This document shows, piece by piece, positions 30,474 through 63,291 of a stretch of DNA of 64,000 nt. Location: IMG/VR virus record IMGVR_UViG_3300022752_000021. One strand, given 5' to 3'. Origin of the DNA: a virus. The position numbers and the translations under genes were made by a program. Under the pieces are notes generated by a model, which saw nothing but the letters and a program-made list of their open reading frames with translations, was not told the origin of the DNA and ran no database searches. The first letter of the stretch is position 1, and every line of letters starts with the position of its first letter.

Positions 30474-33400
30474 TTATGATGGAGAAATTTTAAATCTTAC
30501 ATCAGCGTGCATTCCTATATTATTCACATAAACTTTCCAACGATCAGATACAGAATCGTATCTGAACGCAATGTGTTCAGCATTCAAACCATCAGCCTCT
30601 GATGCTATTGGAGTTGTTGCTATTTCCTCATGAGCAAGATCATTTGGTTCATTTTCTTGATCGATGTAGAACTTGTGTGCCGATTCAATTTTGAACGTGG
30701 ATGGAAGTTCTATAGACAACATGCAAGACCAGTATCTTCCATTATAGCCACCAACCAAAGGCTTGCCCCAATAAAATTCTCTTTCAGGATAGAACATACT
30801 GGCAGTAGCACCAGTTGCACCACCAAGGGGCCAGGGAACGCCGCTGTTTGGATCTGGATTGCTTGGCAATGCATTGTATTCGGATCTCCAGTTTGGTCCA
30901 TATCCCCAAAGATCAATATCCAACACACCATTCAATTTTGGATTTGTGCTTTGTAGATTTGGAACTGTAGTTGGATCAAGTTCATTAAATCTTTTTGAGT
31001 AATTAGCACCTTGCCCACCAATACCATTCTTTCTGTCATCCAGCCAATTCATATCATTGAGTAAATGAACCCCTATAACAAACGAATCGTTTTTATCAAC
31101 ATTAGAATAACGCCACCACGACGAGCATTTTGCTTTGGTCAAGTCAAACGTAGGCTTTTCCGCTGGATTATTTGCATCATATTCATAACTTGTTATGGTT
31201 CCAAACGCAGGAGGTATTCCACCAACTTCTAATATCTTATTAAGCAACTTTTGCTTTTCAGAATCTCGCGAATCTAAATCATAAAACCGACCCTTCAATC
31301 TTGGATCATCCGCATCATATTGAGCGGTTCCTCCAAATACTTCGTCCATATACAGTACCTTACCACCCGATGCTTCAAACTCAGCAAGTTTTGTTGCAAG
31401 ACTTTCTGTTATAAATTCTCGGTGAGGAATAACAATTATACCTAGACCCGTCAACTCATTATTTTCTAGTTGAATATTTTGCAATAATGAGTATGGAATC
31501 ATATTACTCTCACACACCTCAACACAACCAGCGATGGGGTGATAGTATTGACCAAAATTTTGACCAATGCTGTTTGTTTTATAGGTGTAATTACTGCCAG
31601 CCCCATTAGTTAATTCTGGTTCTAAATGCTGTTTGATATATCTAAATCCAGCATCAGCAAAATTACCCATGTAATTAGTTGTGGGTAATATAGTTCCTCT
31701 TGGCGGCATGTGTATACCAAGCCAACAGTATGGTTTCTTAAACTCAAACGGCAGTTGGCTATTTTGTATAATTTCCTTATACTTTCTATGGTGATACATC
31801 ATTTTTCTATACCAACTATAGTTTGGTCGTGGAACCTGACCACCTCCAATACGAACTGGATTATAGTATGCGTCACCTGTTGTCCCTGCATCATTTCTGC
31901 TTACATCCCCCAGCCATCCAATACTTGATAACGCGAATGTGGTAAATGAATTACCAACCACTAAATTCTTTTGATACTTACCCCTCAAATATCCAACAAT
32001 ACAATCTTCGCGTCCCCATCCTGATGTGAGGAAGAAGTATCCACCACTTGGATATTTGAGATAATCTAGAGTATTGAATGTTTCAGCATCATTGACAGCA
32101 CCCGTACTCCCAACAGGAAGTTGGTTTATAAAAGCAGAAGTCATTTCATGCCAACTATAAGATGCCTTAAAATCAGCCATGTAGTCTGTTTTATACTGAA
32201 TATTAAACATAGTGTTTGCATCTGGCACATTTATATCAGCATATGCCTTCTCCGCATCTTTAGTTCCTGCAAGAACACTTATTGGTGGATTGTTCCCTTG
32301 ATTTGCACCAGGTAAAGTCATGTCAAGATATTCTTGTGGACTGTAAAACGAACTTCGTGGACGAAGCCTATTCAAACTTCTAGGCTCAACCATATGTTCA
32401 GTTTTCTTACCCTGAGCGTAACGACCCAAAATTTCGTGTTGTGTTATTTGCGCTCTGTGTATTTGCAAATCGTTTGCTGGTAAGAACACACCATTGCCGT
32501 AACTTGCTGTCTCAACTGCCAATGCCAATTCTTTTATGATGTTATTATATTCTTCTATAAGCACATCATTATATTCAAGAATGTTATTCTTTTGTGTGTC
32601 CGTAATATTTGGGTTGTTCATAAGATCAAATGTGGCAGTTCCTTCTTGATCACCATATCGATACATCCAAGTAGTTCCACGAAGAACACCCATTGTAAGA
32701 CCAGAATCTGGGAATGGGAAATTATTTTCCGTGAATGCCCATGTGATGTAAGCGGCATCTGTGCGACCAGCATAACCTTTATGCTTTGCCCAAATGTCTA
32801 TGGCATAATCAGAAAAATCTATAGCCTCATCATGAACAAAATTATAATCCCATTGCAATGCATCAATACCAAGACCACCCTCGCTTTGAGGTCTTACAGT
32901 TTCTTCCATAACCTCTTTCAGCACCCTCTTATATTCAGGATTAAAAATTGTTCTCGGAACAATGTTATTGATATAGTATCTTTGTGGGTATCCCGTTATT
33001 GCCTTTGCTTCGGGATAGAATGTTCTATTTAAACCAAGGAACATTGGTTTAAAATACGCCAACACCTTTATGCCACGTTCATGTGCGAGATTGACAGTTG
33101 GTCTTACCAAATCAAGATTTGGACAACGATCAAGCATAACAGTATGACCAATTGCTGTCATACCAGAAGGAGTCATAATTTGAACATTCGATCTCCACAA
33201 AAGCGGTTGCTCTAAAACTTCAAACAAAGAAAATTCTAGTATGTCTGGTTTGTATTTTGCATAAACATCATACTTTCTAGTACTAGCAAAATATTTGTTG
33301 AATGCTGCAATAACACGTTGTTCTTCTGTAGCACCGTTTTCTCTATAGTAACTATTTGCTGGTCTATATTTAAATTCAGCGAGATCACTGACATATGTTA

Positions 33401-36400
33401 TTCCAGGAGAGAAGTTAAACGGTCTTGAACCAGTAACAGTTCGTGGATTATTTGGTGGGTCGAGTGGGTAATCTTGGAACATGGTTGTTTCATAGAATAC
33501 TTCCGAAGTATTACCCAAATTTGCTTCGTAAATATTTTTCATCTGCCTATAGTCACCATCAATACCCATTCCGAATGTAGATTTATTGAACCATGTTGGT
33601 TGGTTTATAATTGCTGGACTACTAAATTCATTGCCAAAGAAGAAAGACTGTACTACGCCAGATTCATATTGTGGTTTACCATATGATGCTGGTGCCTCAA
33701 GCCAAACCCCACGACTTCCATTTGGAATCAAAATAGTTTGAGGAAGTTCGCTTTGTTCATCACTTGTTCTAGTAATATAATTTCTAAATGGTGGGACAGT
33801 TATTCTCCAAAGCCGTTTATTCGGATCATTGGTGTATGCTCCACTTATTACTAGATTTCGCCCAGCCTGATATAGATCTATACGATCAACCGTTCCACCT
33901 GTTGCTCCTGTGTAATCACATGGGGTGCCAACAACATTTCCGCTAATATTTTTCCACTCAACCAAAGCATCATTTACAACACCCATTTCTCCAGGTTCAG
34001 TTGCTGCGGAATTGAAAACTATGAAGTAGTTAACGCCAGATAGACAACTGTGTAAGATATTTTCTTTGATATATTCTCTTGCATATTCTCCAACATACCT
34101 AGACAGCGAAATATTCGATGCTTCGTTAGGAACGGTTAATACATTGAATCCTTCTTGCGGTGCCGTAGGACGAGATCTCAATATACCACGAATAACTTTT
34201 TGATCTGCGATGAATGCTTGATATGCATGGTTGCCAAATGTTATACCACCATTATGCCAACCAAGATCTTTACCATATCTCTCCGCATCTGTTTTTGGTT
34301 CTGTTGGCGGATATCCGTAATCATCCACCAAATAATCTTCAAGTCGCCCATATGCGGTGTGTGAATGACCGTTATATTTTAACTTATATGGTTTGATTAC
34401 CATAAATCCACCAGAATCCACAGCATAGCGAGCCTCATTTGTGTTCAAAACATGTGATTCTGAAGAAGTTACTTTTGTGTTTTCAAAACCAGGAGTGGTC
34501 TTTAACGTCTCTCCAATTATTTTGCCTTTCAAATCACCAAGGCAGAAAGTGTAATTAGTGGCATTCCATGCATGGAATGTCCTTATGGTATCCGCATTGC
34601 TATATGGATTCTTAAAATCATTTCGATCCGAAACATCCGTGTAATACGAAAGTATTTGTTCTGCACTTGCCCCACAAGCACCAAATCCTTCCAACACCAT
34701 CAATTCATTATAAATGTCCTTGAAATCTTGCGCCCAAGTTTTAGAATTCGTTTCGTTAGTAATTCCATTAAATCTAGAATCAGAAACGATTGCGGGTGTT
34801 GAGCGAGCATCGGGAATAAATTTAAAACTGTTACTACCACTTGCAAAATTTGTTAAGGCTGTGTCAGCAGCAGCACCTGTTCCAAAACTAGTCAAAAAAC
34901 TAGAGGTCAAACTGAAATTGTCCACTGAAGTTTCATTGTCATCATGAAGATACTTAAATTGTACTCCATTATACAAGCACTGTGTCAAAAAATTACTAAA
35001 CGAATCTTTAGCAACACTTCTATTTTCATATGCCCACGGTGTCATGTATCTAAGCGGATTTGTGTCACCATATTGCCACGTCCCACCATAATCTGTGCTA
35101 AGGAATGTTATACCAGTTGCGTTTCCTGTATAGGTAGTGCCATCAGCAAGACGCTTGAAATAATAGTGTGGTTCACGATGAGTTCCCGCAGGACCATCCA
35201 ATAGCCAATATCTTGGTAAGACTACTCTCCGCTCCACAGGTATCTCTGCACAAAGGTTTTTAAACCCTTCAAAATGGGTTGCTGTAAGACCAGAAGTATT
35301 TCCTGGACCCCCATTTTCATATCTGAAATAATTTTCGTTTACTGTTGGAGAGGTAAAATTGTTTGGGTGAATGAGGGGAACGATTGATGGGTATAAAGAT
35401 TGACCGTCAGCACCAGTATTAGCATGACTCCATGATGCAGCAAACACCGCGAAGTCTAATGCTCTGAAGAATCCCGTTCTTGACGTATCTGGTGGATCAA
35501 TCAACCCGTTGACAAGTTCATCATGGAGTTCGTTGAAATACAACGAGTCAAGACCTTCTGTTATTCCACCCTTCATGCAAGCATAAAGAAGTTCGAACTC
35601 AGATGTACGAGCAATTCCAGTCCAGAAATTTTGTGGTGGTTTTGTTGGGGTTCTACGATTTGGATAGGGGAAGTTTGAAACAACTGCTCCTCTGTTATTC
35701 GCCTCCATATCTGGCTCAAACAAAACGCTTAAAGTTTTATCGTACCAACCAGATCGATTCAAGTGATTGTAATAACCAACGCCATCGTGGAAATGATCCA
35801 AGATACTCATATTCAATGCCAACATTGTTGGATAGAGATAGAATAAACGGAATCGTCTGTCGTGTATCCATGGAACACCCTCATTGATATTATTGTTGAA
35901 TACAGTTCCAGGAACTCTCTTCCACTTTATATCTCCATCGTTTTCAACTTCAATGAATGTATTATAGAAGCATGAGAATGCACTCATTGCAGACTTGTTA
36001 GTATCCGCAAGTTCTTGTGGAGTGCATGATGCAAATATCTCACCTAGTTGACTGCTTCCACAAACACCCATACCCCATATGGAGTTTGAATATGTCGTAC
36101 CCCATTTTCTCTGCCCCAGCAACATGTCGTGTGCGGAAGTGAAAAGATCATTTGCTTTGTCAGAGTCCAAACACCAGTGTCTTGGATTTACATCGTCTAT
36201 AGATCTTCGTTGATCATTTCTATTGGGATCATTTAGCCCAACATCGTCCTTAAACATGTATTGTGCAAATCGCTCAACACCAAGAACAACCCCCTTGTCG
36301 GCATTAGTGGAGTTTCCAAAGGTGTAATTGTATTGATCTCTTGCCCATTCAACTGGAATATTTTCAGCGTAACTAATACCATTCGTTAAATTTGTCCACA

Positions 36401-37850
36401 GAGTGTATCCAGGGTCTTGCCACTTGTGATATGTCCTCTCTATGACCGCACTTGCATCCATAACAACCCGAGCAAAGCCGTCGAATGGAGACTTGAATTT
36501 TTCCTTCCAGTGAGAGACAGATGCATCAAGTCTCCACTTAAAGTAGTTCTTATTTCCAACAAGTGTTGGGTCTTTGTATAGAGCAAATGGAATACGCATC
36601 TCAAAACCTGTTCCGTAAGGAAGGCATCCAAGATATGCAATGAATTCCATAGAGTTGCCCCATGTCTCTGAAAGTTGATTCAGAGATTCAAGAAGCCGTT
36701 CTCCGTATCCATAAGAAATTCCCGCCACATCTGTCATTGGCGATTTTGCAACAAGTTCCGAAAGGTTTTGTGGATCAGACGGGAATGTATCACCATTGAA
36801 CATGATAAGACTATCATAGTGGAAGCAAAGTCCAGCCCGTTCATTTGCATTTCCCCACCACGACGAAAATGTGAGTGCATTTGGGAATCTGATCCAAGGC
36901 GATCCAACTAACACTCTGTCAGCAGAGTAACCTCCACCAGTTCTTCCGTAATCATTGAATGGCACTATTGATATTGTACCAGCATCAAAGCAAATGCCTC
37001 TATAGAGGGTATTCAAATGAATGTCTGTAATCCCATCTACAACTACACCAAGTTCAGCAGTTCGACCAACCGTATGATCCGAAAGAAGATCTCTTACTGT
37101 TGTATTTTCTCGCAACATAAGATACATGTCGAACTGAAATGATTCTGCTGTATATCTGTCACTCAACCATGGATATCGTCTCCAATTTCCAGCGAGACTA
37201 TTCATTGGTCCATTGAAGTTTCCATATGGACTATGCAGTAAAGAACGACGAATGCAATTGTCGTAGTTTGCACTAAACCCCATGTGGATTTGATAGGGCA
37301 AGGAATTGCCAGGATACCAATCAAACTTTGGGTGATATCCAAAGAAAGCATTTCCACCATTGAATAAAAAATCCTGAGCGTAAATACCATTCAGATTGTA
37401 CTGAACAAATTTGTTTGATGCTCTCTGTGGGCTTCTTGCCCGTTCAAACTTCTTGTATGCAGAACGAACAGCAGACGCAAAATCCTTTGGGTGTGTCAGC
37501 GGATCAAACCAACCTTCATCCCCATTGGTTGTATAATTGAAGGCAGTTTCAACCGTTCCACCCAAAGTTAGTGGATTTAGACCACTTGAAATCCCAAGCA
37601 GTTGCATTGTGGCGACTTTACCTAAATTTGCAGTAGCAGCAGACCAACCAGGTTCATATCTGTTTATAAGATAATTAAAAACTCTATTGAATTTTTCTTG
37701 AAACTCTATAGTTGGACCTTGTGTGATAATAATTGGAGTTCTAGTTCCTTGTTCAAATATAGAACTCTGCGAGGAGTTTACTCCTGTCAGTTTAGCGTTT
37801 GTCAACTTAACCTTGTAGTTATTCAGAACTCGTATATTCGTTATCTTCAT
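30474..37850 (-). CDS. 2458-aa multidomain protein, probably virion-associated, with a C-terminal glycoside-hydrolase-like module
   Basis: Uninterrupted ORF. LAHERGIKVLAYF...GIDALQWD...DFS (TIM-barrel GH-like), then IPYSLL...IIVIP......LAEF..SGGKVLY (GH42 trimerisation-like). The ORF is certain; the function is tentative. Confidence 0.6.
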   Translation of the reverse strand: MKITNIRVLNNYKVKLTNAKLTGVNSSQSSIFEQGTRTPIIITQGPTIEFQEKFNRVFNYLINRYEPGWSAATANLGKVATMQLLGISSGLNPLTLGGTVETAFNYTTNGDEGWFDPLTHPKDFASAVRSAYKKFERARSPQRASNKFVQYNLNGIYAQDFLFNGGNAFFGYHPKFDWYPGNSLPYQIHMGFSANYDNCIRRSLLHSPYGNFNGPMNSLAGNWRRYPWLSDRYTAESFQFDMYLMLRENTTVRDLLSDHTVGRTAELGVVVDGITDIHLNTLYRGICFDAGTISIVPFNDYGRTGGGYSADRVLVGSPWIRFPNALTFSSWWGNANERAGLCFHYDSLIMFNGDTFPSDPQNLSELVAKSPMTDVAGISYGYGERLLESLNQLSETWGNSMEFIAYLGCLPYGTGFEMRIPFALYKDPTLVGNKNYFKWRLDASVSHWKEKFKSPFDGFARVVMDASAVIERTYHKWQDPGYTLWTNLTNGISYAENIPVEWARDQYNYTFGNSTNADKGVVLGVERFAQYMFKDDVGLNDPNRNDQRRSIDDVNPRHWCLDSDKANDLFTSAHDMLLGQRKWGTTYSNSIWGMGVCGSSQLGEIFASCTPQELADTNKSAMSAFSCFYNTFIEVENDGDIKWKRVPGTVFNNNINEGVPWIHDRRFRLFYLYPTMLALNMSILDHFHDGVGYYNHLNRSGWYDKTLSVLFEPDMEANNRGAVVSNFPYPNRRTPTKPPQNFWTGIARTSEFELLYACMKGGITEGLDSLYFNELHDELVNGLIDPPDTSRTGFFRALDFAVFAASWSHANTGADGQSLYPSIVPLIHPNNFTSPTVNENYFRYENGGPGNTSGLTATHFEGFKNLCAEIPVERRVVLPRYWLLDGPAGTHREPHYYFKRLADGTTYTGNATGITFLSTDYGGTWQYGDTNPLRYMTPWAYENRSVAKDSFSNFLTQCLYNGVQFKYLHDDNETSVDNFSLTSSFLTSFGTGAAADTALTNFASGSNSFKFIPDARSTPAIVSDSRFNGITNETNSKTWAQDFKDIYNELMVLEGFGACGASAEQILSYYTDVSDRNDFKNPYSNADTIRTFHAWNATNYTFCLGDLKGKIIGETLKTTPGFENTKVTSSESHVLNTNEARYAVDSGGFMVIKPYKLKYNGHSHTAYGRLEDYLVDDYGYPPTEPKTDAERYGKDLGWHNGGITFGNHAYQAFIADQKVIRGILRSRPTAPQEGFNVLTVPNEASNISLSRYVGEYAREYIKENILHSCLSGVNYFIVFNSAATEPGEMGVVNDALVEWKNISGNVVGTPCDYTGATGGTVDRIDLYQAGRNLVISGAYTNDPNKRLWRITVPPFRNYITRTSDEQSELPQTILIPNGSRGVWLEAPASYGKPQYESGVVQSFFFGNEFSSPAIINQPTWFNKSTFGMGIDGDYRQMKNIYEANLGNTSEVFYETTMFQDYPLDPPNNPRTVTGSRPFNFSPGITYVSDLAEFKYRPANSYYRENGATEEQRVIAAFNKYFASTRKYDVYAKYKPDILEFSLFEVLEQPLLWRSNVQIMTPSGMTAIGHTVMLDRCPNLDLVRPTVNLAHERGIKVLAYFKPMFLGLNRTFYPEAKAITGYPQRYYINNIVPRTIFNPEYKRVLKEVMEETVRPQSEGGLGIDALQWDYNFVHDEAIDFSDYAIDIWAKHKGYAGRTDAAYITWAFTENNFPFPDSGLTMGVLRGTTWMYRYGDQEGTATFDLMNNPNITDTQKNNILEYNDVLIEEYNNIIKELALAVETASYGNGVFLPANDLQIHRAQITQHEILGRYAQGKKTEHMVEPRSLNRLRPRSSFYSPQEYLDMTLPGANQGNNPPISVLAGTKDAEKAYADINVPDANTMFNIQYKTDYMADFKASYSWHEMTSAFINQLPVGSTGAVNDAETFNTLDYLKYPSGGYFFLTSGWGREDCIVGYLRGKYQKNLVVGNSFTTFALSSIGWLGDVSRNDAGTTGDAYYNPVRIGGGQVPRPNYSWYRKMMYHHRKYKEIIQNSQLPFEFKKPYCWLGIHMPPRGTILPTTNYMGNFADAGFRYIKQHLEPELTNGAGSNYTYKTNSIGQNFGQYYHPIAGCVEVCESNMIPYSLLQNIQLENNELTGLGIIVIPHREFITESLATKLAEFEASGGKVLYMDEVFGGTAQYDADDPRLKGRFYDLDSRDSEKQKLLNKILEVGGIPPAFGTITSYEYDANNPAEKPTFDLTKAKCSSWWRYSNVDKNDSFVIGVHLLNDMNWLDDRKNGIGGQGANYSKRFNELDPTTVPNLQSTNPKLNGVLDIDLWGYGPNWRSEYNALPSNPDPNSGVPWPLGGATGATASMFYPEREFYWGKPLVGGYNGRYWSCMLSIELPSTFKIESAHKFYIDQENEPNDLAHEEIATTPIASEADGLNAEHIAFRYDSVSDRWKVYVNNIGMHADVRFKISPS

Positions 37851-38296
37851 CTCGTTGACTCCGCTTCAACTTCCATTTTTCCTGAAAGTAATTTGCTTAC
37901 TATTTCCCCACCACTCACATTTTGAACAAGTTCCATATCATAGAAATATCTACCAATTTTGAATTCAGATGTGGTGTCTGCTGTTAGAACAAGTCGCATG
38001 AATCCAGTTGCACCACCAAGGAAGAAAACTCCATCCTGCACAAATCCCTGAGTACTACCTGGTTGAAATGCATAGGTCATCGTTGTTCCAATTGTAAATA
38101 GAATCGGATCACGGTACTTGGACTTTCGAATCTTCATTCGAATCTTGTAGTCATCAACAGAATAAACCATTGTTCCAAACTCGTTTATCTCTGATGTCAG
38201 AAGAGACAACGATTGAAGTTCATCATTGAACACTTGAAACTCAAGCACAAATGTTGATCCTTGTTCAACGGATAGATCAGTATGCAGTGCTGGCAT
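37847..38296 (-). CDS. Virion structural/adaptor protein (Ig-like), paralog 2
   Basis: L.VEQGSTF.L.F...RMKIRK.KY...G.Y.YD.E.V......K.LSGKME.EAE.T, shared with the adjacent gene. Confidence 0.7.
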   Translation of the reverse strand: MPALHTDLSVEQGSTFVLEFQVFNDELQSLSLLTSEINEFGTMVYSVDDYKIRMKIRKSKYRDPILFTIGTTMTYAFQPGSTQGFVQDGVFFLGGATGFMRLVLTADTTSEFKIGRYFYDMELVQNVSGGEIVSKLLSGKMEVEAESTR

Positions 38297-38739
38297 TAGT
38301 TTGTTGCCTCCGCTTCGATTTCCATTTTACCAGACAAAGCCTTAGTGACTTCCGTGCCGCTTCCTTTGGTCTGCACCACTTCAATATCATAGAAATACTT
38401 GCCATATTTCAAAGAAGCAGTTGTATTGGAAGATATGACGAATTTCACTCTACCTTGATTTTCGGAATCAAAGTAGAATCCATCAACAGTGTTACCTTGA
38501 GTGCTTTCGGCGTTACTCTGCAAAACTGCGTTGTATGTTATGCCAAGTATGGGTGTATTTGTTCCATACTTTGTCTTTCTGACTTTCATTCTCATACTCA
38601 CATCTGTTACAGATGCAGTTGTCGTATACTGATTGGTCTGAGTTGTAGTCAATGCAGTATCATCATCTTTCTTCAGATCAAACTGAAGAATGAATGTAGA
38701 ACCCTGCTCAACCAAAAAATCTTGCTCAACTAAAGCCAT
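38296..38739 (-). CDS. Virion structural/adaptor protein (Ig-like), paralog 1
   Basis: Same motifs as 37847-38296; TAATG coupling. Confidence 0.7.
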   Translation of the reverse strand: MALVEQDFLVEQGSTFILQFDLKKDDDTALTTTQTNQYTTTASVTDVSMRMKVRKTKYGTNTPILGITYNAVLQSNAESTQGNTVDGFYFDSENQGRVKFVISSNTTASLKYGKYFYDIEVVQTKGSGTEVTKALSGKMEIEAEATN

Positions 38740-39770: not shown

Positions 39771-39803
39771 TTCATGTCTCCTAGTTGCCTATTATTTAGG
39801 AAA

Positions 39804-41444: not shown

Positions 41445-41453
41445 ATGCATTAT

Positions 41454-41479
41454 CCTCCGATATATGTATCATTTCGGAG
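41454..41479 (-). promoter_or_regulatory. Late-type promoter within an RBS-sequestering hairpin for the EndoVII gene
   Basis: CTCCGA-N13-TCGGAG stem overlaps GGAGG; GATACATA lies in the loop. Confidence 0.65.
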
Positions 41480-41537
41480 CGCATTTAGGAGCGAAATACA
41501 AACAATCATACTTAGAACCCAAATACACTATAAATCT

Positions 41538-42110: not shown

Positions 42111-42135
42111 GATGTATACCTTTCATAGTGCCGTA

Positions 42136-49397: not shown

Positions 49398-49406
49398 GAA
49401 AACTCC

Positions 49407-51601: not shown

Positions 51602-51619
51602 TCATTTCTCCAAATAAAA

Positions 51620-52189
51620 TTACACTGTTGGCGTGAAGTTGCTCAAGCCAGGAAGCGGTGATGCGTCTGGCGTACCGATATTTGACGTGAAGTATGAGTA
51701 AGCAAGAGTCACACTAAACTCTTCAATCTGATCAGTTGCTTCATATGAGAGGTCGATTGATGAGATATCTGTTGGGAAACAACCAATCAACTTATATGCC
51801 TTGACTGGCTGACCAGTGCGGTCAAGTTGATTTACTTGCCAATCTTGGAACACTGGTCCTGCAAGGTTTGAAAACTCTGATGCAGCAACATTTCGTTCCA
51901 TTGCCTGAATATTGTTGACCCAAAGTTCAAACAAGTTACGCAACTGAAACTTATTGTCGTTGATGATTGTGATAGACCAATCACCAAATGTTCTGTCGCC
52001 AGGAACTTTAATTCGTCTGCCGCGATATGGGATTTCGATTGTTCCCAACGCGGTTCCTGGTAATGATGCAGACTTTACAAGGAATGGGGTAAGAGAACTT
52101 TGGCTCGTACCGATGTTTCCTTGAACTTCAAAGAGCGATGGCTTGACACCGGCTCCCTGCATTGCATTTGCAAATCTCTTGATGTTCAT
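51620..52189 (-). CDS. gp19: Tail tube protein
   Basis: ASLPG..G.IE.PYRGR..K..GDRTF..W..T..ND..F..R..FE.W, V.QLDR.G, FPT.IS.IDL......IEEF.V. Confidence 0.96.
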   Translation of the reverse strand: MNIKRFANAMQGAGVKPSLFEVQGNIGTSQSSLTPFLVKSASLPGTALGTIEIPYRGRRIKVPGDRTFGDWSITIINDNKFQLRNLFELWVNNIQAMERNVAASEFSNLAGPVFQDWQVNQLDRTGQPVKAYKLIGCFPTDISSIDLSYEATDQIEEFSVTLAYSYFTSNIGTPDASPLPGLSNFTPTV

Positions 52190-52213
52190 TCTTTGTTACT
52201 CCCTATGGTCTAT

Positions 52214-55213
52214 TTATTCGATGGTGGTTAGGTTGAAGTCACTTCTCACAGCAACGAAGTTCAACTGAACGAAGTTGATGGACTTCAATGGCTTGATATA
52301 AATGTCTGCAACAAACTGATTGCTGTCGATTACTTGCGATGTATTGTTCGTTTCATCACAAACAACCTTGAAATCAGCAATACCGCGCTGTGCTTGAACA
52401 CTAGAAAGGAATGGTGTTACAAGATTGCGGAATTGGGAGCGAGTAAACTCGTCATTGAATTCAAAGAGAGAATACTTGGCTGCTTTAGCAATAGCCTTCT
52501 CAAGAGCAATAAACACTCTACGAACATTGATGCGGTCAAATGCACTTGGCTTCGTCAACATGGTCTTATCGCTGAAAAGAACGGTTCCTGAACCATCGTT
52601 GAACTGAACAAAGAAGTTGATTCCATTCTTGTAGAGTTCATCGCGATCTGCCTTGCTGAAATTAGTTTCCAACTTCACAGCATTTCGGATAAAGCCTCTT
52701 GAGAACCCTGCGGGAGATTCCCAAGGAATCTCTTGAGCGCATAGAATTCCAGCAACATCCGACGAGAGAGGCATCTTCCTCAATTGGTTGTTGAAGGTAT
52801 CAAAGAAAATCTTGCGTCCAGCAACAAGAACCGTGTATGAGTTTGATGGAATCGTTAGTTTAGTTTTTCTGAATTGAATCGCGTTATTTGTTGTTATTGC
52901 TGAGTTTTGATTTGCCGATCCTGGGTTTTCTGTTGGTAAAACCAAAATCGTGTCTTTTCTCTTGGAAATAATATTGTCATACACATACGATTCAAGCGTA
53001 GTCTCACTTGAGTTATCTGCAATATGCATGTAAAGTTCTGGTATAAACAGAACATCAACTGCATTATCATCATCAGCAAACATTGCATAGGCTTTTGAAT
53101 ATTCTGATATCGTTGCAGCAGATACTCCAGATTCTCCATAATTAAGTGTTGTCTCATAGTTGGAGTTTTTAGTATATGTGACGCCATCTGCACCAATGTA
53201 TTGATATGTTATTTCGCCAAAGGTAGAATCAGCCTTTGACGCATAATTTGCATTTCCGCCAACAAGATCAAACGCCCTAGTCATATACACATATTTTGAA
53301 TTGTTGTTGATGAAATCTTTATAGTAGATGGATTGGTTATCCGCATTTTTTCCGTCAACCGCTTTTGATAGAAGTTCGAATCGTTCCAAAACACTATTTT
53401 TAGCACCAAATTTTCCACCAGCATCAACAATGACAATATTGATTTCATCGTTTGATCCACCAAGTGATGCTGCGTATGGAGATGTACCTGGTTGTTTTTC
53501 AAAAACAAAATTGCTTTCAGAACCACCGCCACTAGATTCTCCATTGCTAGTTTGTATAGTACCAGTGACATCTGCTTTTTCACCAATTTGAATAATCCCA
53601 TATTTGAAATTATCCCTTATTCCTGTAACTCCACCCACATTACCGAAGTCAACAGTTTTTTCAACCACGGAATCCGAATCAAAAAGTGTTGAATAAGTTC
53701 TGACATTATGTGTTCCCGTCAAACCTATAAGTGTTGCTAAACCTTTTACAGTTGTTGGTGGCGGATATGTGTTATCTCCAGTTATAAAAGGATATACGAG
53801 ATGGGCAAAATCAAAAGATCGCTGTATTGGGGTATTTCTGGCATTATATTTTTTTGCATCTGTTTGTATTTCAGTTACTATGTCACCTGTAAACAATGAG
53901 TTAATACCAGTTGTAGTTGTATATTGGGAAAAGAAAATTCTAGGTGTTGATTCTTGTGTTGTTGCAAAATGGCTCGGAACTCCACTGGACGCAATCACGT
54001 CTGTAAAAATAATTTTTCTACCATTACCGTCAAAGTTTGGTTGCTCTGGATTGCCATTATTAGGAGCCTGCCATTCTTGTGGTGCATTATATCTGTCATT
54101 AACACCAATTGATTGCTTATCAAAATTCATAAAAATCATATCAACAAAGGCTGCATTACTTGGGTTGATACGCATTAATACTTTTGGACTCCAACCGACA
54201 GTGCCCAGATTACCACCAAAATCATAAGGAGTAAATGGGGTGATTGGCTTTGCCTGATTTACATTATCAATCCCACCGTGATATCCAAGTGGAAATGTAT
54301 TTTGAACATTTCCATCTGGATTAATACCATTGCCAGTTAGATTGTAATTCGCGGTTGTTGTTCCCGATGCATATAAGAAATTAAATCTTTCATAGAAGTT
54401 GGATGCTAAGTGGGGAGAATCGGATAAACCAATAAAGTTTGTTGGTGTTACGTCTTCTGGTGGTTCAAATGTTACAATATAATATGGAATATTAATGAAT
54501 GTAATGCCACCCGTATTACCACCAGTAGAACCAATCACGGTTCTTGATAAATTACCCTGTCCATCATTAATTATCTCTTCAACAAAAGATTGAAGAGTTA
54601 ATCCACAAATTCCTGAAGTAACACCTTGAATCATGGATCCTTGATATCCACCTTTAAGTGTGAAATCATTGTATGACCCAGAATAATTTATTTGAGTTCC
54701 TGTAGGTGTGGTACCCGTTGTATTTCCATCACTCACATAAACCTTGAGCGAGTCACCAAAATTTCCAGGATATCTTGCTCTAAAGTGTGCTAGTGGTTCT
54801 ATTCCCTGAGAGTCCGATGAGAATCCGCCAAGTTTCTTAAACTCTTCAAAACTTGAAATTGATCGGTATTGACAACTGTTTATATTGGTTATTCCTGCTT
54901 CATCACTGGTAGAGTTTGAATCTGTTGATTTCAATACACGAATTACATTAAGATTATTCGAATACTTCAAGAAATTAGCAGCAGAGAGAAAATCTGTATT
55001 TCCAACAACATCAGATTGGTCTAGAGTTGGTTTACCGTATAGTTCAGCCAACTGACTTTCTGTACTTACCCGATTCTTTTCATAACCAGGACCCCAATTG
55101 AATATCCCAACCATACCACCACTATTCAATGATTCTGGTTGGACAAATTGTGAAAGATCAATCTCCGATACATTTACACCTGGACTTAGTTGTGTTGGGA
55201 TTGGACTAGCCAT
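52214..55213 (-). CDS. gp18: Tail sheath protein, second copy with a ~400-aa insertion
   Basis: QLSPGV..SEIDL, F.WGP, AANFL.Y, A.YPG..G, W.SPAG..RG, SAFDRINVRR.FI.LEK, FVADIYIKP..SINF.QLNF. Confidence 0.92.
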   Translation of the reverse strand: MASPIPTQLSPGVNVSEIDLSQFVQPESLNSGGMVGIFNWGPGYEKNRVSTESQLAELYGKPTLDQSDVVGNTDFLSAANFLKYSNNLNVIRVLKSTDSNSTSDEAGITNINSCQYRSISSFEEFKKLGGFSSDSQGIEPLAHFRARYPGNFGDSLKVYVSDGNTTGTTPTGTQINYSGSYNDFTLKGGYQGSMIQGVTSGICGLTLQSFVEEIINDGQGNLSRTVIGSTGGNTGGITFINIPYYIVTFEPPEDVTPTNFIGLSDSPHLASNFYERFNFLYASGTTTANYNLTGNGINPDGNVQNTFPLGYHGGIDNVNQAKPITPFTPYDFGGNLGTVGWSPKVLMRINPSNAAFVDMIFMNFDKQSIGVNDRYNAPQEWQAPNNGNPEQPNFDGNGRKIIFTDVIASSGVPSHFATTQESTPRIFFSQYTTTTGINSLFTGDIVTEIQTDAKKYNARNTPIQRSFDFAHLVYPFITGDNTYPPPTTVKGLATLIGLTGTHNVRTYSTLFDSDSVVEKTVDFGNVGGVTGIRDNFKYGIIQIGEKADVTGTIQTSNGESSGGGSESNFVFEKQPGTSPYAASLGGSNDEINIVIVDAGGKFGAKNSVLERFELLSKAVDGKNADNQSIYYKDFINNNSKYVYMTRAFDLVGGNANYASKADSTFGEITYQYIGADGVTYTKNSNYETTLNYGESGVSAATISEYSKAYAMFADDDNAVDVLFIPELYMHIADNSSETTLESYVYDNIISKRKDTILVLPTENPGSANQNSAITTNNAIQFRKTKLTIPSNSYTVLVAGRKIFFDTFNNQLRKMPLSSDVAGILCAQEIPWESPAGFSRGFIRNAVKLETNFSKADRDELYKNGINFFVQFNDGSGTVLFSDKTMLTKPSAFDRINVRRVFIALEKAIAKAAKYSLFEFNDEFTRSQFRNLVTPFLSSVQAQRGIADFKVVCDETNNTSQVIDSNQFVADIYIKPLKSINFVQLNFVAVRSDFNLTTIE

Positions 55214-55224
55214 TTTCTCTCCTA

Positions 55225-57126
55225 TTAGATGATCTCAGTGAAGGTGCTATCTGTTCTCGTTGCGATGAAGTTCAACTGAATGAAGTTAATCGACCTTGCT
55301 GGCTTGATGTAAATGTCTGCCACGAACTGATTGTTGTCAATCACTTGACCAGTATTATTTGTTTCATCACAAATAACTCTAAAGTCCGTAATTCCTCTTT
55401 GTGCTTGAACATTTCTGAGATATGGAATGACTAGATTGCGGAATTGAGAACGGGTGAACTCATCGTTTACTTCAAACAATGAATATTTAGCAGCAGTTGC
55501 GATGGTCTTTTCAAGAGTGATGAACAACCTACGAACATTGATACGATCAAAAGCACTAGGCTTTCTCAACATTGTTTTGTCGCCAAAGAGAATTGTTCCT
55601 TCTCCACTAAATGTTGCTACAGGATTTATGGTGTTTACATATAACAAATCTCTTGAAGACTGATCTGGGTTGAATGCTAGTTTGATAGTATTTCTTATAG
55701 TTCCACGATTGAGTCCTGCTGGTGAGAACCAAGCCTGTGTTGCAGATTCACTCCTCGCACAAATTCCAGCAATATCAGAGTTCAATGGAATATAACGGAA
55801 CATATCGTTGTACTTGTCGTAAATGTACTTCCATCCACTATCCATCACAACATACGATGAATTTATTGCATAAACATTATTTCTTGTATTGATAATGTTT
55901 GAGGTTGCTATAGTTTGAGTTTTGTTCAAAACATCATTAAGTGCTGGTGACACAAACAATACGCAATCTTTGCGCTCATTGACAAGATCTGCAAGAAGTT
56001 TGACTGTTGTTGCATTTGATCTACCTGATATGAGTAGAGAGATATCAACATTATCACGATCAAGGAACTTACTATATCCCTTGGTAAAGATATTTGCTGT
56101 GGTGGAAGACGCACCAGTTCCTCCGCTTAGGCTATAACGAGAAACCTTTGCAGCAGCATAGCCTCCACTGATATCACTGAAGGTTGTTGTGAGATCTTTA
56201 GCAACGGTTTCGCCCCATAGTTGCTCAAGATTTCCTGCCCAAATGTAGTTTGATTCCGAATTGATTACAGATGTGACATAATTTGGTTGTCCATCATTGT
56301 CGCGAGCATCGTATGCTTTCGAAACATTCTGGAATGTTTCTAGGATTGTTCCTCTAGTACCAGTGAATAATCCATCTTCATCAATAACTACAACATTGAG
56401 TTCATCATTTGAGCCACCCTTGGCAGCGGCTTGTGTGCTTGTCTCGGCGGTGAGTTGGAATAGATCAGCATACTTACTGCGGAACTTCATACTTGCACTA
56501 AGACCGATTGTGCTAGCAATATATGTCTTGGTTGTAACAGTATTTCCTGCGGCAGAATCAACAAGGAAAGTTTGTGAAAACTGATTTGTTTGGTAAATCA
56601 ATTTATCGTTTTCTTCAAGCGTTCCACCCAGAACTGTTGAGAATCTGATGGTATTTACTCCGATTGATGCCGTTGCTCCAACGGTGAGTGTTGCTTCGCC
56701 ATCACCATCAATAACAACAACTTTCAACGAATTTCCTAATACTCCTGGATATTTGGCATAGAACGCAGCAGTTAGTCCAAAACTTCCACCAAGAACATCT
56801 TCATTGGCATACTGTAATCCAGTAAAACCAGAAGAGTTTGCGTTGGTTTCGTCGTTACCTATAGCACGAACAACCCGAAGATCTCGACCATACTGAAGAA
56901 AATTTGCTGCACAGTGGAAATCTATTCCGTTATCATCACGGAGAGGTTTTCCAAAAACTCTTACCAAATCGTCTTCTGATGTGATCGTGACTATTTTTTC
57001 TGCTGGACCCCATTGAAATACTCCAGCGATTGCCGCTGTGGTACTTGCAATATTTGGTGTGACATTTGTGAGGTCAATTTCCGAATAATTCACACCTGGG
57101 CTAAGTTGTACGGGGATTCTGCTCAT
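55225..57126 (-). CDS. gp18: Tail sheath protein, canonical size
   Basis: Same sheath motifs, 633 aa, directly after gp17. Confidence 0.96.
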   Translation of the reverse strand: MSRIPVQLSPGVNYSEIDLTNVTPNIASTTAAIAGVFQWGPAEKIVTITSEDDLVRVFGKPLRDDNGIDFHCAANFLQYGRDLRVVRAIGNDETNANSSGFTGLQYANEDVLGGSFGLTAAFYAKYPGVLGNSLKVVVIDGDGEATLTVGATASIGVNTIRFSTVLGGTLEENDKLIYQTNQFSQTFLVDSAAGNTVTTKTYIASTIGLSASMKFRSKYADLFQLTAETSTQAAAKGGSNDELNVVVIDEDGLFTGTRGTILETFQNVSKAYDARDNDGQPNYVTSVINSESNYIWAGNLEQLWGETVAKDLTTTFSDISGGYAAAKVSRYSLSGGTGASSTTANIFTKGYSKFLDRDNVDISLLISGRSNATTVKLLADLVNERKDCVLFVSPALNDVLNKTQTIATSNIINTRNNVYAINSSYVVMDSGWKYIYDKYNDMFRYIPLNSDIAGICARSESATQAWFSPAGLNRGTIRNTIKLAFNPDQSSRDLLYVNTINPVATFSGEGTILFGDKTMLRKPSAFDRINVRRLFITLEKTIATAAKYSLFEVNDEFTRSQFRNLVIPYLRNVQAQRGITDFRVICDETNNTGQVIDNNQFVADIYIKPARSINFIQLNFIATRTDSTFTEII

Positions 57127-57177
57127 TTTGTTCTCCAGATGATTCTATCATGTATGTAGTAAATTTTAGTATTTCAC

Positions 57178-59305: not shown

Positions 59306-59311
59306 GATATA

Positions 59312-61774
59312 TCACCTTCCTACGAACTGATCCGACGATCTATACTCCACAAGAGTAGTTATATTGTTGTCTGTAAAATATTCGATTGCAGCGGCAAGTT
59401 GTTCCTTTGAGAGTTCAAAATATGCATCTCTCATGATTTTATAAGCAGTGATAATGTTATCATTGGCTATGCTTTGCCACCTATCACGCAGAGATGTGTT
59501 TTTATACATTATTGATTCTTGATTCAATGGTACTTGATACCATCTAAATGTCCCATTGAAACCATATGGAATCATGGTGTTGCCACCTGTTAGTCCAGTA
59601 TTTGATTCATATACTCTAAAATCACTAAATCGACCAGATCTAAATGTGGTGAGATAATTGGCATGATTCGCTTCTGCCGCAGTAAGTCCAAGATCTGGTA
59701 GACTTTCTCCAAACGACAACTCATATTGCAATTGTTGTAGATTAAAGAAATACGTTTCAAGCCCTCGGATAAATGCTGTAGTTGGGTCTGATCCAGATAT
59801 ACCACGTTTAGTTACAACCTTCGTATATTCAGCAGCACCTCTTGCAATATTTCCAAGATAGAATCCATTCAATAGTAGTTGATCAACATCGTTCTTAAGA
59901 ACAAACCCATTTGCTGAAACGTCTCCATTGAACATGGGTTTAATAAGATACTCAACAAAATCTTCAGGCTTATATGGAACAGAACCACCCCTTGTTAAGT
60001 CATAATCTTCATTTCTTCCCGATACCAATGGAACTATTCTATAGTTAAATTTTCCTCGCTCATCAAGCAACAACTTCCACATTTTAAGTGATGAGTGTAT
60101 AGTTGCTTTCATAGACTCTTTGAGGTTAAACAATCTTTCGGCAGTATTTCCACCCATATCTTGGTGGATCGTACAATCTCGTCTTGATGCGAAATTGTTC
60201 GCAAGATTATACGAACCCTTTACTTGCACTGGTATGAACGGATTGAATCTTGGAACAAACTCCATCGCAAAGAAGTTCATGTCCTTATATCCGCCGTATT
60301 CCAACTGCTCTTGATAGATGTCATAGTAATATGAATCAAGGAAGTTCATGGTGGTTCCAAGCGGACCTCTAGGACCAGCGTTGTCAACAAACAACTTCAG
60401 AATATTTGCAGGAAGTAATCTTGAAGCCTGATATGTGTTAGATGCTGCTGATGTTGATGTTGCACCACCAAGCATGAAATATTCGTTATAGAATGAAGAA
60501 TCGCCAGTGAGAGACTTGTGATAACTATTCCAACCAGAGGAACCACCAGATCCACCAAAGGAAGTTGCTCCTGTTGAACCAAGATAGTTGTAAGTATTTG
60601 GTGGTGGATAGAAAGTTATACCAGCAATCCTGTTTAGGAAATATGATGCTCCAGAACTACCAAATGGACCTGTGCCGTCTCTTGCTGTACCTGGAGTTGG
60701 TATTGATGGAATCCATCCAAATACTGATGTGGTATATGGATATGAGTATTGTCCTAGATTTGCACCAACGGATGGGATTGCTTTATATCTTCTTGGATAT
60801 GTCTTGAACTCACTGAAGAATCTCTCGTTGAAACTCTTACTGAGATTGAAGCCATCAAGATTAATATAGTTTCCAGTTTTACCAGAACTACGAATGAGTT
60901 CTGTAGACCATGCTGGATTCGCTGAGTTTCCAACATACTGGGATATCATCCCCGTTTCACCACGCATAAAAGCATTGTCTGAATACTTTATGAATGAGTA
61001 GTATGGTTCAAATGAAGATACTAGACCAGAGAATGTCATGCCTCTATCTGCTAGAATAGAAAAGTTTCTTCTTGTGGAGAAATGAATATCTGGTGTGAAG
61101 TATATTGATCGTACTGAAGCACTCAAACCAGTATTTGCAGACAGACCGAAGTATAGGGGAGAGTCTAATGTTGCTGTTGGTAAACCATTGCTATGTGTAA
61201 GACCAAGAACAGATGGATTTTCTAGTAATTGAAATGGAGCAAGAACTCCACCAAAATTCACTATTGTATATGTTCCAGCAGACGAACCCTTCGCAGTAAC
61301 TCCCGTGAATGCAGTTATTCCAATGGGTTGATTTGCACCCGTAATGCTATAAAACTGTGGATACTGTAGAAGAATATTTGAGTTGTCATACAAGGCTTTG
61401 AAAGCCCCATACGAAGTTGAATATCCTATAGTGCAAAACTCTGCTTGTCTTAGTTGATCTGTATCATAAAGAACTTCATGTCCCAAACTCTGAAGATATG
61501 TCATACCAGCAAAGAATCTACCATGTTCATACGTCAATCCATCTGCTGCACCAGTTAAGGAACTTATAAATGGGTTGAAATTTTCTGTTGGAGCAAAATA
61601 TGGAATAATGCTTCTGCTGAAAAAAATCTCGGGTGTGATTTCTTTCTGTTCAACTGTGATCTTTATTTTCTTTATTGTATTTGCAGTAGTCAAATCGGCA
61701 GTTTCAGTAGCAGTCGTAAGAATGCGATACTGACTCAAAAATCCATCTAGATTTCTTTCTGCTGTTGATGACAT
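59312..61774 (-). CDS. 820-aa hypothetical protein inserted between gp15 and gp16, probably structural
   Basis: Long ORF abutting gp15; Gly/Thr/Ser/aromatic-rich; no family recognised. Confidence 0.7.
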   Translation of the reverse strand: MSSTAERNLDGFLSQYRILTTATETADLTTANTIKKIKITVEQKEITPEIFFSRSIIPYFAPTENFNPFISSLTGAADGLTYEHGRFFAGMTYLQSLGHEVLYDTDQLRQAEFCTIGYSTSYGAFKALYDNSNILLQYPQFYSITGANQPIGITAFTGVTAKGSSAGTYTIVNFGGVLAPFQLLENPSVLGLTHSNGLPTATLDSPLYFGLSANTGLSASVRSIYFTPDIHFSTRRNFSILADRGMTFSGLVSSFEPYYSFIKYSDNAFMRGETGMISQYVGNSANPAWSTELIRSSGKTGNYINLDGFNLSKSFNERFFSEFKTYPRRYKAIPSVGANLGQYSYPYTTSVFGWIPSIPTPGTARDGTGPFGSSGASYFLNRIAGITFYPPPNTYNYLGSTGATSFGGSGGSSGWNSYHKSLTGDSSFYNEYFMLGGATSTSAASNTYQASRLLPANILKLFVDNAGPRGPLGTTMNFLDSYYYDIYQEQLEYGGYKDMNFFAMEFVPRFNPFIPVQVKGSYNLANNFASRRDCTIHQDMGGNTAERLFNLKESMKATIHSSLKMWKLLLDERGKFNYRIVPLVSGRNEDYDLTRGGSVPYKPEDFVEYLIKPMFNGDVSANGFVLKNDVDQLLLNGFYLGNIARGAAEYTKVVTKRGISGSDPTTAFIRGLETYFFNLQQLQYELSFGESLPDLGLTAAEANHANYLTTFRSGRFSDFRVYESNTGLTGGNTMIPYGFNGTFRWYQVPLNQESIMYKNTSLRDRWQSIANDNIITAYKIMRDAYFELSKEQLAAAIEYFTDNNITTLVEYRSSDQFVGR

Positions 61775-62437
61775 TTACTCGTCCGTTAGTTCTCTAAAGG
61801 TTAGATCAATTTCGCGAATAAGACCAGAAGTTCGCACTGGTCCAAAAATATAAGATTTCGTTTGAAAGATTAGTGAGTGTGTAATCAGTCTTCGTTCGTT
61901 CAAATCACCCTCGTAATCCTCAACACTGCTGATAGAAGAAAGAATGATTGGCACATCCACTTTTCTATCTAGTTCTGTGAAGTTCATGCTTATCGTAAAG
62001 TCTGGTGTGAAATACGGTAGTATCTGCTCTATGATTTGATACCCATCATCGATATTGCGATTCATTATGTTGAGAGTGAACTCTATGTTGTATGGAACTT
62101 CACTATAAGCATATGATATGGTGCTATCGTTTTCGTCTCGTACAGAATACACCTTATTCAAACTATTGAGTTTTCTGTTGTTGTCGTAAACCATCGAAGA
62201 GATTTCAAATGACATTCTTGGGAGAATGTTTTCGAAACTCTTTCTTGCGGGGTCTGCTTCATCCAGTTCCCTGATTTTACGGACAAACTTTTCTTTTGGA
62301 CCGTATGAGATAGGAACCTTTATTTTCTTTTGTTCTGTTCCATCTGCCTCTTTGCGAGAGATGTATATCTCGTTGAACAGAGAGCCAAACGCAACAACTA
62401 ACTTTCGAATGCTTCCGTGATAGAAATAGCGAAACAT
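61775..62437 (-). CDS. gp15: Tail sheath stabiliser / terminator
   Basis: YFYH..IRK..VAFG.LFN, KVPI.YGPKEKF, LPRMSFE, VPYN, QI.EQILPYF.P. Confidence 0.95.
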   Translation of the reverse strand: MFRYFYHGSIRKLVVAFGSLFNEIYISRKEADGTEQKKIKVPISYGPKEKFVRKIRELDEADPARKSFENILPRMSFEISSMVYDNNRKLNSLNKVYSVRDENDSTISYAYSEVPYNIEFTLNIMNRNIDDGYQIIEQILPYFTPDFTISMNFTELDRKVDVPIILSSISSVEDYEGDLNERRLITHSLIFQTKSYIFGPVRTSGLIREIDLTFRELTDE

Positions 62438-63291
62438 CAGTAGTTCGCCTCACTGAAAGGATCTTTATCGGTAAAGTCGATTATATCCAACTTTGCGCGT
62501 TCCTTTTCGATATCCCCACCATCATCAAGATTAGCATTGATGAATTTCTTCTCGGTGGTGGTGATGGTTTCATAATCAGCAGAGGCACTAGATTGTTCTC
62601 CGCGCAATCTTGTCAGCGAAGATGGTGTGCCAGTTTCAGTATGCACCTGTATAGTATTGACAAGAGGGTTGAAGTTGAGAACGGTGGCAGACCAAGATGC
62701 TGCACCAAAGCACAAACCTTGATATATCTTTTCACCTTCGTAGAATGAGCCACAAACACCGCTTATTGTAAACTCTCTAATATTGGTGAGGATTTGAGTT
62801 TCGATATCATCGACTTCCTTGATCTCGGTGTCGATCTGCTCGCCAGAGTATCGGAAGAGTTCACATGATATTTCGTAGGCAAAGAATGAGTTTCTGCTTC
62901 CGACATACTTTACTTCGTACAACCCACCATATTCGGGAAAATAGATGAGATCCCCCTCTTGTGGGCTTGTGTCTGTTCCATACCTTGCAGCCTCCTCGGA
63001 AAACCTCTTCTTGGAAACCATGAGGGTGACAGAATCTTGAAGATTGATTCCGAACTTGTCCATCATCTTGTTCTGAGATTCGAAGAACTCGTAGTTGGCT
63101 ACGAACATTTCCACCTGAAAACTCTTGTTGAACTTGGATACAGGATCCTCTCCAAAGAGATTATCCAAGTTCTGAAACTTGCGGAAGATGTAATGGACAT
63201 CAAAGCCATAGATCTTGATCTGCTCAACAACAAGTTGTTCAAAGAGATCTGATTCGCGAGAAGAGACTTTGAAGTAGTTGTTCCGTGCCAT
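62437..63291 (-). CDS. gp14: Neck protein (head completion)
   Basis: E..L...L..E.IK..G, LFGED..SKF, KFG....D, P.EGDLIY.P, CELF.YS.E, IIDF...PF. Confidence 0.94.
   Translation of the reverse strand: MARNNYFKVSSRESDLFEQLVVEQIKIYGFDVHYIFRKFQNLDNLFGEDPVSKFNKSFQVEMFVANYEFFESQNKMMDKFGINLQDSVTLMVSKKRFSEEAARYGTDTSPQEGDLIYFPEYGGLYEVKYVGSRNSFFAYEISCELFRYSGEQIDTEIKEVDDIETQILTNIREFTISGVCGSFYEGEKIYQGLCFGAASWSATVLNFNPLVNTIQVHTETGTPSSLTRLRGEQSSASADYETITTTEKKFINANLDDGGDIEKERAKLDIIDFTDKDPFSEANY

Follow-up and report, generated by a model that had tools for sequence, protein, structure and literature searches.

The 64 000-nucleotide stretch taken from the IMG/VR virus record IMGVR_UViG_3300022752_000021 (hereafter the window) encodes a predicted glycosyltransferase that combines a family 2 catalytic domain (GT2) with tetratricopeptide repeats (TPR), together with several large proteins in which the tripeptide glycine, any residue, threonine (GxT) recurs. 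The question raised by this locus is whether the tripeptide marks residues that the phage glycosylates with its own enzyme. A first-pass annotation of the sequence had proposed that it does, with G-x-[T/S/C] acting as a sequon on the capsid, neck, sheath and fibre proteins of a glycan-coated virion. To our knowledge, virion glycosylation by a phage's own enzymes has been documented only for mycobacteriophages, and we know of no acceptor motif for any tailed phage. We found that the GxT signature is genuine, strong and lineage-specific. Judged from sequence patterns and by analogy, the case that the threonines of G-[aliphatic]-T are acceptor sites for a GT2-TPR enzyme of the SgtA/SunS type is about evenly balanced, and a collagen-like tail fibre is its likely primary substrate.

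GxT excess in the proteins of the window

For each protein, the GxT count was compared with those in 2000 shuffled versions of the sequence, with shuffling performed globally, within 20-aa blocks and within 10-aa blocks. All 400 gapped residue pairs (spacing i, i+2) were also ranked by over-representation. The GxT-richest non-collagen protein was an 820-aa orphan encoded between gp15 and the small terminase (59312–61774; minus strand, as for all genes of the window), with 17 GxT compared to an expectation of 6.3–7.6. A second orphan, a giant protein of 2458 aa (30474–37850), had 33 compared to 14–16.5. A collagen-like tail-fibre protein with (GAT/GNT/GSQ)n runs, the 3′ end of which runs off the window (3–2192), had 36 compared to 15–17; this protein matched the Pfam Collagen family (1.8e-14) and PHROG tail-fibre families. 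For all three proteins the observed count was reached in 0 of the 2000 shuffles, so the enrichment noticed in the first-pass annotation held against shuffled controls. Its counts for the 820-aa protein (17 GxT) and for gp43 (three) were likewise correct, and every string that it quoted was present, although RGLTAG and SGLTY belong to the fibre at 3–2192, outside the region 30474–62762 in which they had been placed.

Within both orphans, GxT was the highest ranked of the 400 gapped pairs (z 4.8 in the giant and 4.2 in the 820-aa protein), and neither adjacent GT nor GxxT was in excess. Two small paralogous T-rich proteins of 149 and 147 aa (37847–38739), both assigned to phrog_1084, displayed a slight excess of GxT (4 compared to 1.3 and 3 compared to 1.2).

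Distribution of the excess among T4-like phages

The genome-wide ratio of observed to expected GxT was 1.61 in the window, 1.45 in its closest relative, G001 (156 kb), and 1.31–1.74 in five further T4-like contigs that carry the GT2-TPR gene, the same range covering all GT2-TPR-positive contigs sampled. No excess was found in T4 (0.91, from 50 kb of structural genes), the cyanophage S-CAM8 (1.00), the pelagiphage HTVC008M (1.08) or the metagenomic T4-like contig G014 (1.04). Proteins of at least 400 aa were then pooled from the five further contigs, which have no homologues of the two orphans of the window, and collagen runs were masked. In this pool GxT occurred 795 times compared to 550 expected (z 11.4) and ranked first of the 400 gapped pairs, the next pair reaching a z of 5.1. 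In the four controls, pooled at the same minimum length, it occurred 465 times compared to 456 and ranked 140th.

Most of the excess was held by large clade-specific proteins (1093 compared to 741). Tail-fibre, tail and baseplate-region proteins were among those enriched, as were a sheath and proteins of no assigned function; the 33 enriched proteins fell into 19 sequence-unrelated clusters. The middle residue of GxT was aliphatic in 42% of cases compared to 25% in the controls, and the motif was typically followed by G, A or F and then by an alternation of hydrophobic residues and Thr, with charged residues depleted. The Thr of GxT was the best-conserved class of Thr between clade orthologues (within-protein Mantel–Haenszel odds ratio 1.61, z 3.7).

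In a tree of the major capsid protein, portal and large terminase, all GT2-positive contigs grouped together in a single clade, whose sister was the cyanophage/pelagiphage group. The 68-kb fragment G011, which has a ratio of 1.52 and does not extend to the GT2 region, was placed inside this clade and G014 outside it. The first-pass annotation had suggested a test of whether motif and enzyme co-occur across T4-like phages, and the excess does track the enzyme, although only as a single phylogenetic contrast. As a separate observation on codon use, ACT was commoner for the Thr of GxT than for other Thr in the coding sequences of the GT2-positive clade (0.47 compared to 0.32).

Tests for artefacts

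The enriched proteins are rich in Gly and Thr, and the first-pass annotation itself credited composition with part of the excess. An origin in Gly/Thr-rich composition, collagen triplets, DNA oligonucleotide bias or chance is nevertheless so improbable as to be negligible. Composition and local heterogeneity were rejected as causes since the excess survived shuffling within 10- and 20-residue blocks. It also survived the masking of (Gxx) runs, whether of three or of four and more triplets, and GxT without Gly at −3 or +3 was still 1.34-fold over-represented (z 9.5), which argues against an effect of collagen register. At the DNA level, GGnnnnAC was enriched in codon phase 0 only (1.53, compared to 0.96 and 0.93 in phases 1 and 2), indicating selection on the protein rather than an oligonucleotide bias. 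The z values in independent data sets were in the range 11–16. A generic trait of T4-like structural or fibre proteins was ruled out by T4, S-CAM8, HTVC008M and G014, and a single shared repeat domain by the 19 unrelated clusters.

The candidate enzyme

The GT2-TPR glycosyltransferase (23749–25029) is a protein of 426 aa with a match to Pfam PF00535 at residues 7–100 (E 1.7e-13). When a profile of 23 homologues was compared with all chains of the PDB, the best matches were GmaR (4e-16), SunS (1e-10) and ThuS (2e-8), and TPR proteins matched profile positions 179–237; the homologues themselves carry Pfam TPR families. The motifs D90-A-D92-D93 (DxD) and D36-T-G-S-T-D41 were invariant across the 23 homologues. 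An AlphaFold2 model (predicted local distance difference test score, pLDDT, 86.9) consisted of a GT-A domain followed by approximately ten helices (176–413). Foldseek searches with the model gave full-length matches to SunS (6e-16, over 399 alignment columns) and ThuS (3e-15), with other GT2 enzymes far behind, such as TarS (1e-7). By sequence, predicted fold and domain architecture, the candidate enzyme is thus a member of the SunS/ThuS/GmaR/SgtA class, and the presence of a GT2-TPR enzyme was correctly recognized in the first-pass annotation, GmaR, SunS and ThuS being its nearest solved relatives. An orthologue of SunS in the strict sense was rejected, since the score against TIGR04195 was 37.4 bits compared to a cut-off of 350 (E 1.3e-9) and covered the N-terminal 93 residues only.

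The gene was 50–90% identical in every clade contig reaching that region and was found at the same site beside regA; the regA–GT2 synteny was also confirmed on short contigs of three distant homologues. The gene was absent from S-CAM8, HTVC008M, KVP40 and P-SSM2.

A variable island of sugar-related genes is found at 6773–15951, with Pfam matches to an SDR epimerase, nucleotidyltransferase, HAD phosphatase, methyltransferase, GT10 and GT7 and with further genes of no assigned function. Clade-wide recurrence was seen for the SDR epimerase only, and several of the genes are missing in G001. The core proteins of G001 are 76–94% identical to those of the window, yet its island differs, which indicates hypervariability. 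This variability even in the closest relative does not agree with the matched elongation island of the original proposal; a role of the island in donor supply or glycan extension is possible.

Enzyme and GxT-rich proteins in bacteria and unrelated phages

When one genome was scanned for each prokaryotic species, 80 bacterial homologues of the enzyme were recovered, 36–46% identical over approximately 360 residues, from Actinomycetota, Pseudomonadota, Myxococcota, Acidobacteriota, Bacteroidota, Chlamydiota and others. A partner gene was defined as one encoding a collagen-like protein with at least ten triplets, at least 50% of them GxT, within 2.5 kb of the homologue. Such a gene was found in 18 of the 69 assessable loci, from at least five phyla, compared to one among 524 open reading frames (ORFs) located beyond 2.5 kb in these loci. 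The runs of the partner proteins consist of GAT, GVT, GPT and GNT. Across 687 neighbouring bacterial ORFs, GxT was over-represented (2156 compared to 1590, z 16) and ranked first of the 400 pairs. Two large and mostly non-collagen neighbours had dispersed GxT in excess (37 compared to 18 and 38 compared to 19). The middle residues of the dispersed motif in the phage clade (I, L, A and V) resemble those of the bacterial partners (A, V, P, I and N).

Among phages outside the T4-like group, the unrelated jumbo phage Tunturi_5 encodes a homologue with 39% identity; 4 kb away is the gene for a tail fibre of 1469 aa, whose GPT/GAT runs hold 79 GxT. In the huge phage LR756502, a protein of 1937 aa encoded at a distance of 6 kb from the homologue has 55 GxT compared to 30 expected. 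In the huge phages LR756501 and LR745206, no GxT-rich gene was found within 20 kb of the homologue. Bacteria and two other phages provide independent support for a link between the enzyme family and (GxT)n proteins, with the partner in these cases being chiefly collagen-like.

The arrangement in bacteria can also be described as a conserved two-gene cassette, in which a BclA-like collagen gene directly adjoins the GT2-TPR gene (loci L294–L373; examples at L322:8883-9932, L324:8455-9201 and L331:8233-9234).

The two orphan proteins

No match was found for the 820-aa protein in Pfam, PHROG or cultured phages, and none among 50 697 phage records. Its family comprises 32 homologues, 50–88% identical, each with 11–20 GxT compared to 6–8 expected, and many columns are conserved in the form G-[LIVM]-[T/S]. 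The AlphaFold2 model (pLDDT 64) resembles a TIM barrel interrupted by long inserts of low confidence. The folds ranked highest by VIA-align were GH56 hyaluronidases (Z 10.9 and 10.4), followed by generic TIM barrels (Z approximately 8), and a Foldseek search of the PDB returned nothing. On the basis of this model, the orphan may be not a fibre but an enzyme that cleaves glycans. Eight of its 17 motifs are located in 10-residue blocks with a mean pLDDT of 50 or below, which make up 30% of the chain; this skew was not significant.

No Pfam or PHROG match was found for the giant protein. Its orthologue in G001 has 35 GxT compared to 16 expected, and all four GxC of the giant protein are conserved there. 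Both orphans would be packaged in the virion under the mechanism considered below.

Capsid, neck and sheath proteins

The major capsid protein gp23 (46095–47552; PHROG_138), used as a negative control, displayed no excess of GxT (4 compared to 3.5–4.1) and has an ordinary C-terminus. No GxT was present in gp14. When gp13–15, tube, portal, protease, scaffold, major capsid protein and large terminase were pooled, GxT was depleted (4 compared to 12.8). The tagging of capsid and neck, as originally claimed, is not supported by these counts.

A weak excess was observed for the two tail sheath paralogues, both assigned to PHROG_23. Sheath 2 (999 aa; 52214–55213) has 13 GxT compared to 7.6–8.8 expected (p 0.04–0.08), of which ten are located within residues 71–284, mostly in the inserted N-terminal part. 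Sheath 1 (633 aa; 55225–57126) has 8 compared to 4.6–5.1 (p 0.08–0.12), and the pooled value for both sheaths was marginal (21 compared to 13.3, z 2.4). The claim that the sheath loops are tagged was therefore borne out as regards a weak excess but not as regards its specificity: the sheaths of phages lacking the enzyme have similar ratios (6/4, 7/5 and 6/5), and the sheath was rejected as a clear target. The paralogues are in tandem (52214–57126, minus strand), the larger carrying an insert of approximately 350 residues, and the same pair is present in G001; in the sheath BLAST table, the other clade members and the controls had a single match each.

The cysteine motif

The original proposal had extended the sequon to Cys and thereby to S-linked glycans. 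Among the window proteins of at least 400 aa, GxC was found 7 times compared to 5.7 expected, which is not significant and gives this part of the proposal no support. The AGICAR string of sheath 1 corresponds to IAGLCAR in T4 gp18 and in the HTVC008M sheath and is thus an ancestral core motif.

In the large proteins of the other subclades (G006–G012), GxC was 1.35-fold over-represented (137 compared to 102, z 4.0, rank 7 of 400), and clade-wide the middle residue of GxC is aliphatic as in GxT. A tail-spike-like protein of 1034 aa in G012 (34225–37329; L280:14225-17329) has five of its six Cys in the form G-[LV]-C. This subclade-level excess keeps S-linked glycans in the clade alive as a long shot. 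A single cytoplasmic GT2-TPR enzyme that recognizes G-[aliphatic]-[Thr or Cys] as a minimal internal sequon in many unrelated folded virion proteins of this deep, widespread and uncultured clade, and produces both O- and S-linked glycans, is very unlikely. If it exists, neither a protein sequon defined for a tailed phage nor an S-glycosylated virion would have a precedent.

Comparison with known glycosylation systems

A close parallel is the SgtA–BclA3 system of Clostridioides difficile, in which BclA3 is a collagen-like glycoprotein of the spore surface. SgtA is a protein of 358 aa with a GT-A domain and four TPR repeats, its gene adjoins bclA3, and it adds β-O-GlcNAc to the Thr of GPT/GAT triplets in BclA3 peptides (PMC7157674). 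In both systems a GT-A domain is followed by TPR in one chain of approximately 360–430 aa and a collagen-like GxT surface fibre is present, the window encoding both a GT-A plus TPR enzyme and a collagen-like protein with (GxT)n. The bacterial homologues of the phage enzyme share the layout of enzyme beside substrate, whereas the phage gene itself is 21.5 kb from the fibre gene and the motif is also scattered in non-collagen proteins. The likeness to SgtA is drawn from its published architecture and from a comparison by eye of its primer-encoded N-terminus (MITISLCMI...) with that of the phage enzyme (MKPMLTLCMIVKNE).

SunS and ThuS (PDB 7MSN and 7MSK), which are S-glycosyltransferases of glycocins, share the GT2 plus helical-repeat architecture and gave the best full-length folds; they differ in an identity of only 15–20% and in that no significant Cys signal was found in the window. 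No glycocin precursor was seen near the GT2-TPR gene, which is flanked by regA and the dUTPase gene, in a survey that included no search aimed at precursors. GmaR of Listeria monocytogenes is a flagellin O-GlcNAc transferase and antirepressor. It gave the best match to the catalytic N-terminus and is, likewise, a cytoplasmic GT2-TPR enzyme acting on Ser/Thr of a filament protein, but only approximately 100 residues align to the solved fragment and the regulatory role of GmaR has no counterpart here. BclA of the Bacillus anthracis exosporium has collagen-like GxT repeats, mostly GPT, with O-linked oligosaccharides on Thr. It differs in being a spore protein and not a phage protein.

In mycobacteriophages, structural proteins are decorated by the phages' own glycosyltransferases (Freeman et al. 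2023, as cited in PMC12619734 and PMC12801897). As far as these citing accounts describe them, the glycans are located at the C-terminal ends of capsid and tail-tube subunits, whereas gp23 of the window has neither a signal nor an unusual C-terminus. The two cases also differ in phage type and enzyme class, the present one concerning a T4-like myovirus and a proposed short internal motif. In the literature that was searched, no report was found that an enzyme of this kind glycosylates a collagen-like fibre in any phage or the virion proteins of T4-like phages.

Proposed mechanism and rival explanations

In the mechanism that we favour, the phage's own cytoplasmic GT2-TPR enzyme would O-glycosylate the threonines of G-[I/L/V/A]-T before or during assembly, with the TPR arm holding the protein substrate and the GT-A domain being catalytic. 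The collagen-like (GAT/GNT)n fibre at 3–2192 would be its main target, and selection would have placed the same short motif in other large proteins of the clade, among them both orphans (820 and 2458 aa), fibres, proteins of the baseplate region and the inserts of the sheaths. Products of the variable sugar island may provide the sugar donors or lengthen the glycan. From the sequence patterns, the phage particles are probably sugar-coated, and we infer that threonines of this phage are modified. The case for the dispersed GxT sites in many unrelated large late proteins as acceptors falls a little short of even.

Several observations weigh against this mechanism. The enzyme gene and the fibre gene are not adjacent, being separated by 21.5 kb in the window and by approximately 24 kb in G001. 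Because the GT2-TPR-positive contigs form one clade, enzyme and motif excess in T4-like phages amount to one evolutionary contrast. A few replication proteins, which are not virion components, also run slightly high (for example gp46, 4 GxT compared to 1.1), and orthologues shared with the controls have a smaller excess (262 compared to 218, a ratio of 1.20), the ratio for the controls' own orthologues being 1.01. GxS was flat in the five-contig pool (552 compared to 546), although Ser can serve as an acceptor for SgtA in vitro. When the 820-aa family was taken by itself, conservation of the motif Thr was not significant (p 0.27), and, between clade orthologues, the Gly of GxT was conserved no better than other Gly (odds ratio 1.07). 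With collagen runs masked, Tunturi_5 has little dispersed excess (1.08). Finally, the sequence context of GxT looks like the start of a β-strand, and folded strands are poor acceptors; this strand-like context, the preference for Thr over Ser and the ordinary conservation of Gly are as compatible with a structural motif as with a sequon.

These properties would be expected if the GT2-TPR enzyme modified only the (GxT)n fibre and the dispersed G-[aliphatic]-T were an unmodified structural habit, consisting of a Gly turn and then a strand with one Thr-rich face, in the β-rich fibre and enzyme domains of the clade. Such a division would be consistent with the aliphatic middle residue, the hydrophobic/Thr alternation at +3 to +8, the depletion of K, R and E, and the β propensity of Thr compared to Ser. 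It would also be consistent with the linkage in bacteria and Tunturi_5 being mainly to collagen-like proteins, and with the modelling of the 820-aa protein as a TIM barrel with inserts and not as a fibre. It is nonetheless somewhat unlikely, since large fibre and baseplate proteins of a similar kind have no excess in T4, S-CAM8, HTVC008M and G014 (1.01–1.02), while that of the clade spans 19 unrelated families and extends to subclades (G008 and G012) whose sampled contigs hold few GxT collagen triplets. The enrichment of the two large non-collagen neighbours of the bacterial cassettes and the extra constraint on the motif Thr also argue for modification of dispersed sites. A more radical separation, in which the enzyme acts on a host protein during takeover, on a polymer of the host surface or on some small peptide, and the GxT excess is a clade-specific trait of other origin, for example threonine ladders that bind a receptor or a signal read by an assembly factor, is improbable. 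The clade-conserved position of the enzyme gene among early replication genes (regA, gp44/62/45 and dUTPase) would suit such a role, as would the non-virion substrates of GmaR and SunS and the single phylogenetic contrast in T4-like phages. Against this, members of the enzyme family are encoded close beside (GxT)n genes in five or more bacterial phyla and in two unrelated phages, which makes a chance pairing with a GxT-rich proteome unlikely, and the biochemistry of SgtA matches the motif (PMC7157674).

Other features of the window

The gene layout of the window, which stems from an uncultured phage, is that of a T4-like myovirus. A structural block runs in the order gp13, gp14, gp15, 820-aa orphan, small and large terminase, the two sheath paralogues, tube, portal, protease, scaffold and gp23. 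It is followed by uvsW, gp55, gp47 and the 2458-aa orphan, which is preceded by the two small paralogues, and then by denV, gp46, gp45, gp44, regA, the GT2 gene and dUTPase. The remainder consists of a Dam-like methylase with an HNH gene, gp43, uvsX, the sugar-gene island, gp41, thyX and two collagen-like proteins. At the nucleotide level, the only resemblance to cultured phages was one of approximately 70%, over head genes of cyanomyoviruses. Because the T4 late promoter TATAAATA was present only once in the window, the timing of gene expression could not be read from it.

The methylase ORF is of the N6/N4 DNA methylase type, and the HNH endonuclease ORF that follows overlaps its start (20520–22206, minus strand). 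The tail-tube protein gp19 (51620–52189, minus strand) has an S/T/P-rich C-terminus (…NIGTPDASPLPGLSNFTPTV), with 15 Ser and Thr in the final 50 residues, which recalls the glycosylated tube C-termini reported for mycobacteriophages. The second collagen-like protein (2223–3401, minus strand) consists of charged GEK/GER/GIQ triplets with almost no Thr and three GxT, and is conserved in G001, G006, G008 and G012.

Biological significance

If the proposed mechanism is true, a whole abundant environmental clade of T4-like phages carries glycans on its fibres, and probably on further large proteins, at sites marked by a readable motif of three residues, and the sites of glycosylation would be predictable from sequence alone. 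Such a coat would have consequences for how these phages recognize their hosts and withstand proteases and grazers, and for their recognition by antibodies or lectins. For the GT2-TPR family as a whole, with 26 607 bacterial and viral cluster representatives, the likely function would be that of glycosyltransferases of (GxT)n collagen-like surface proteins.

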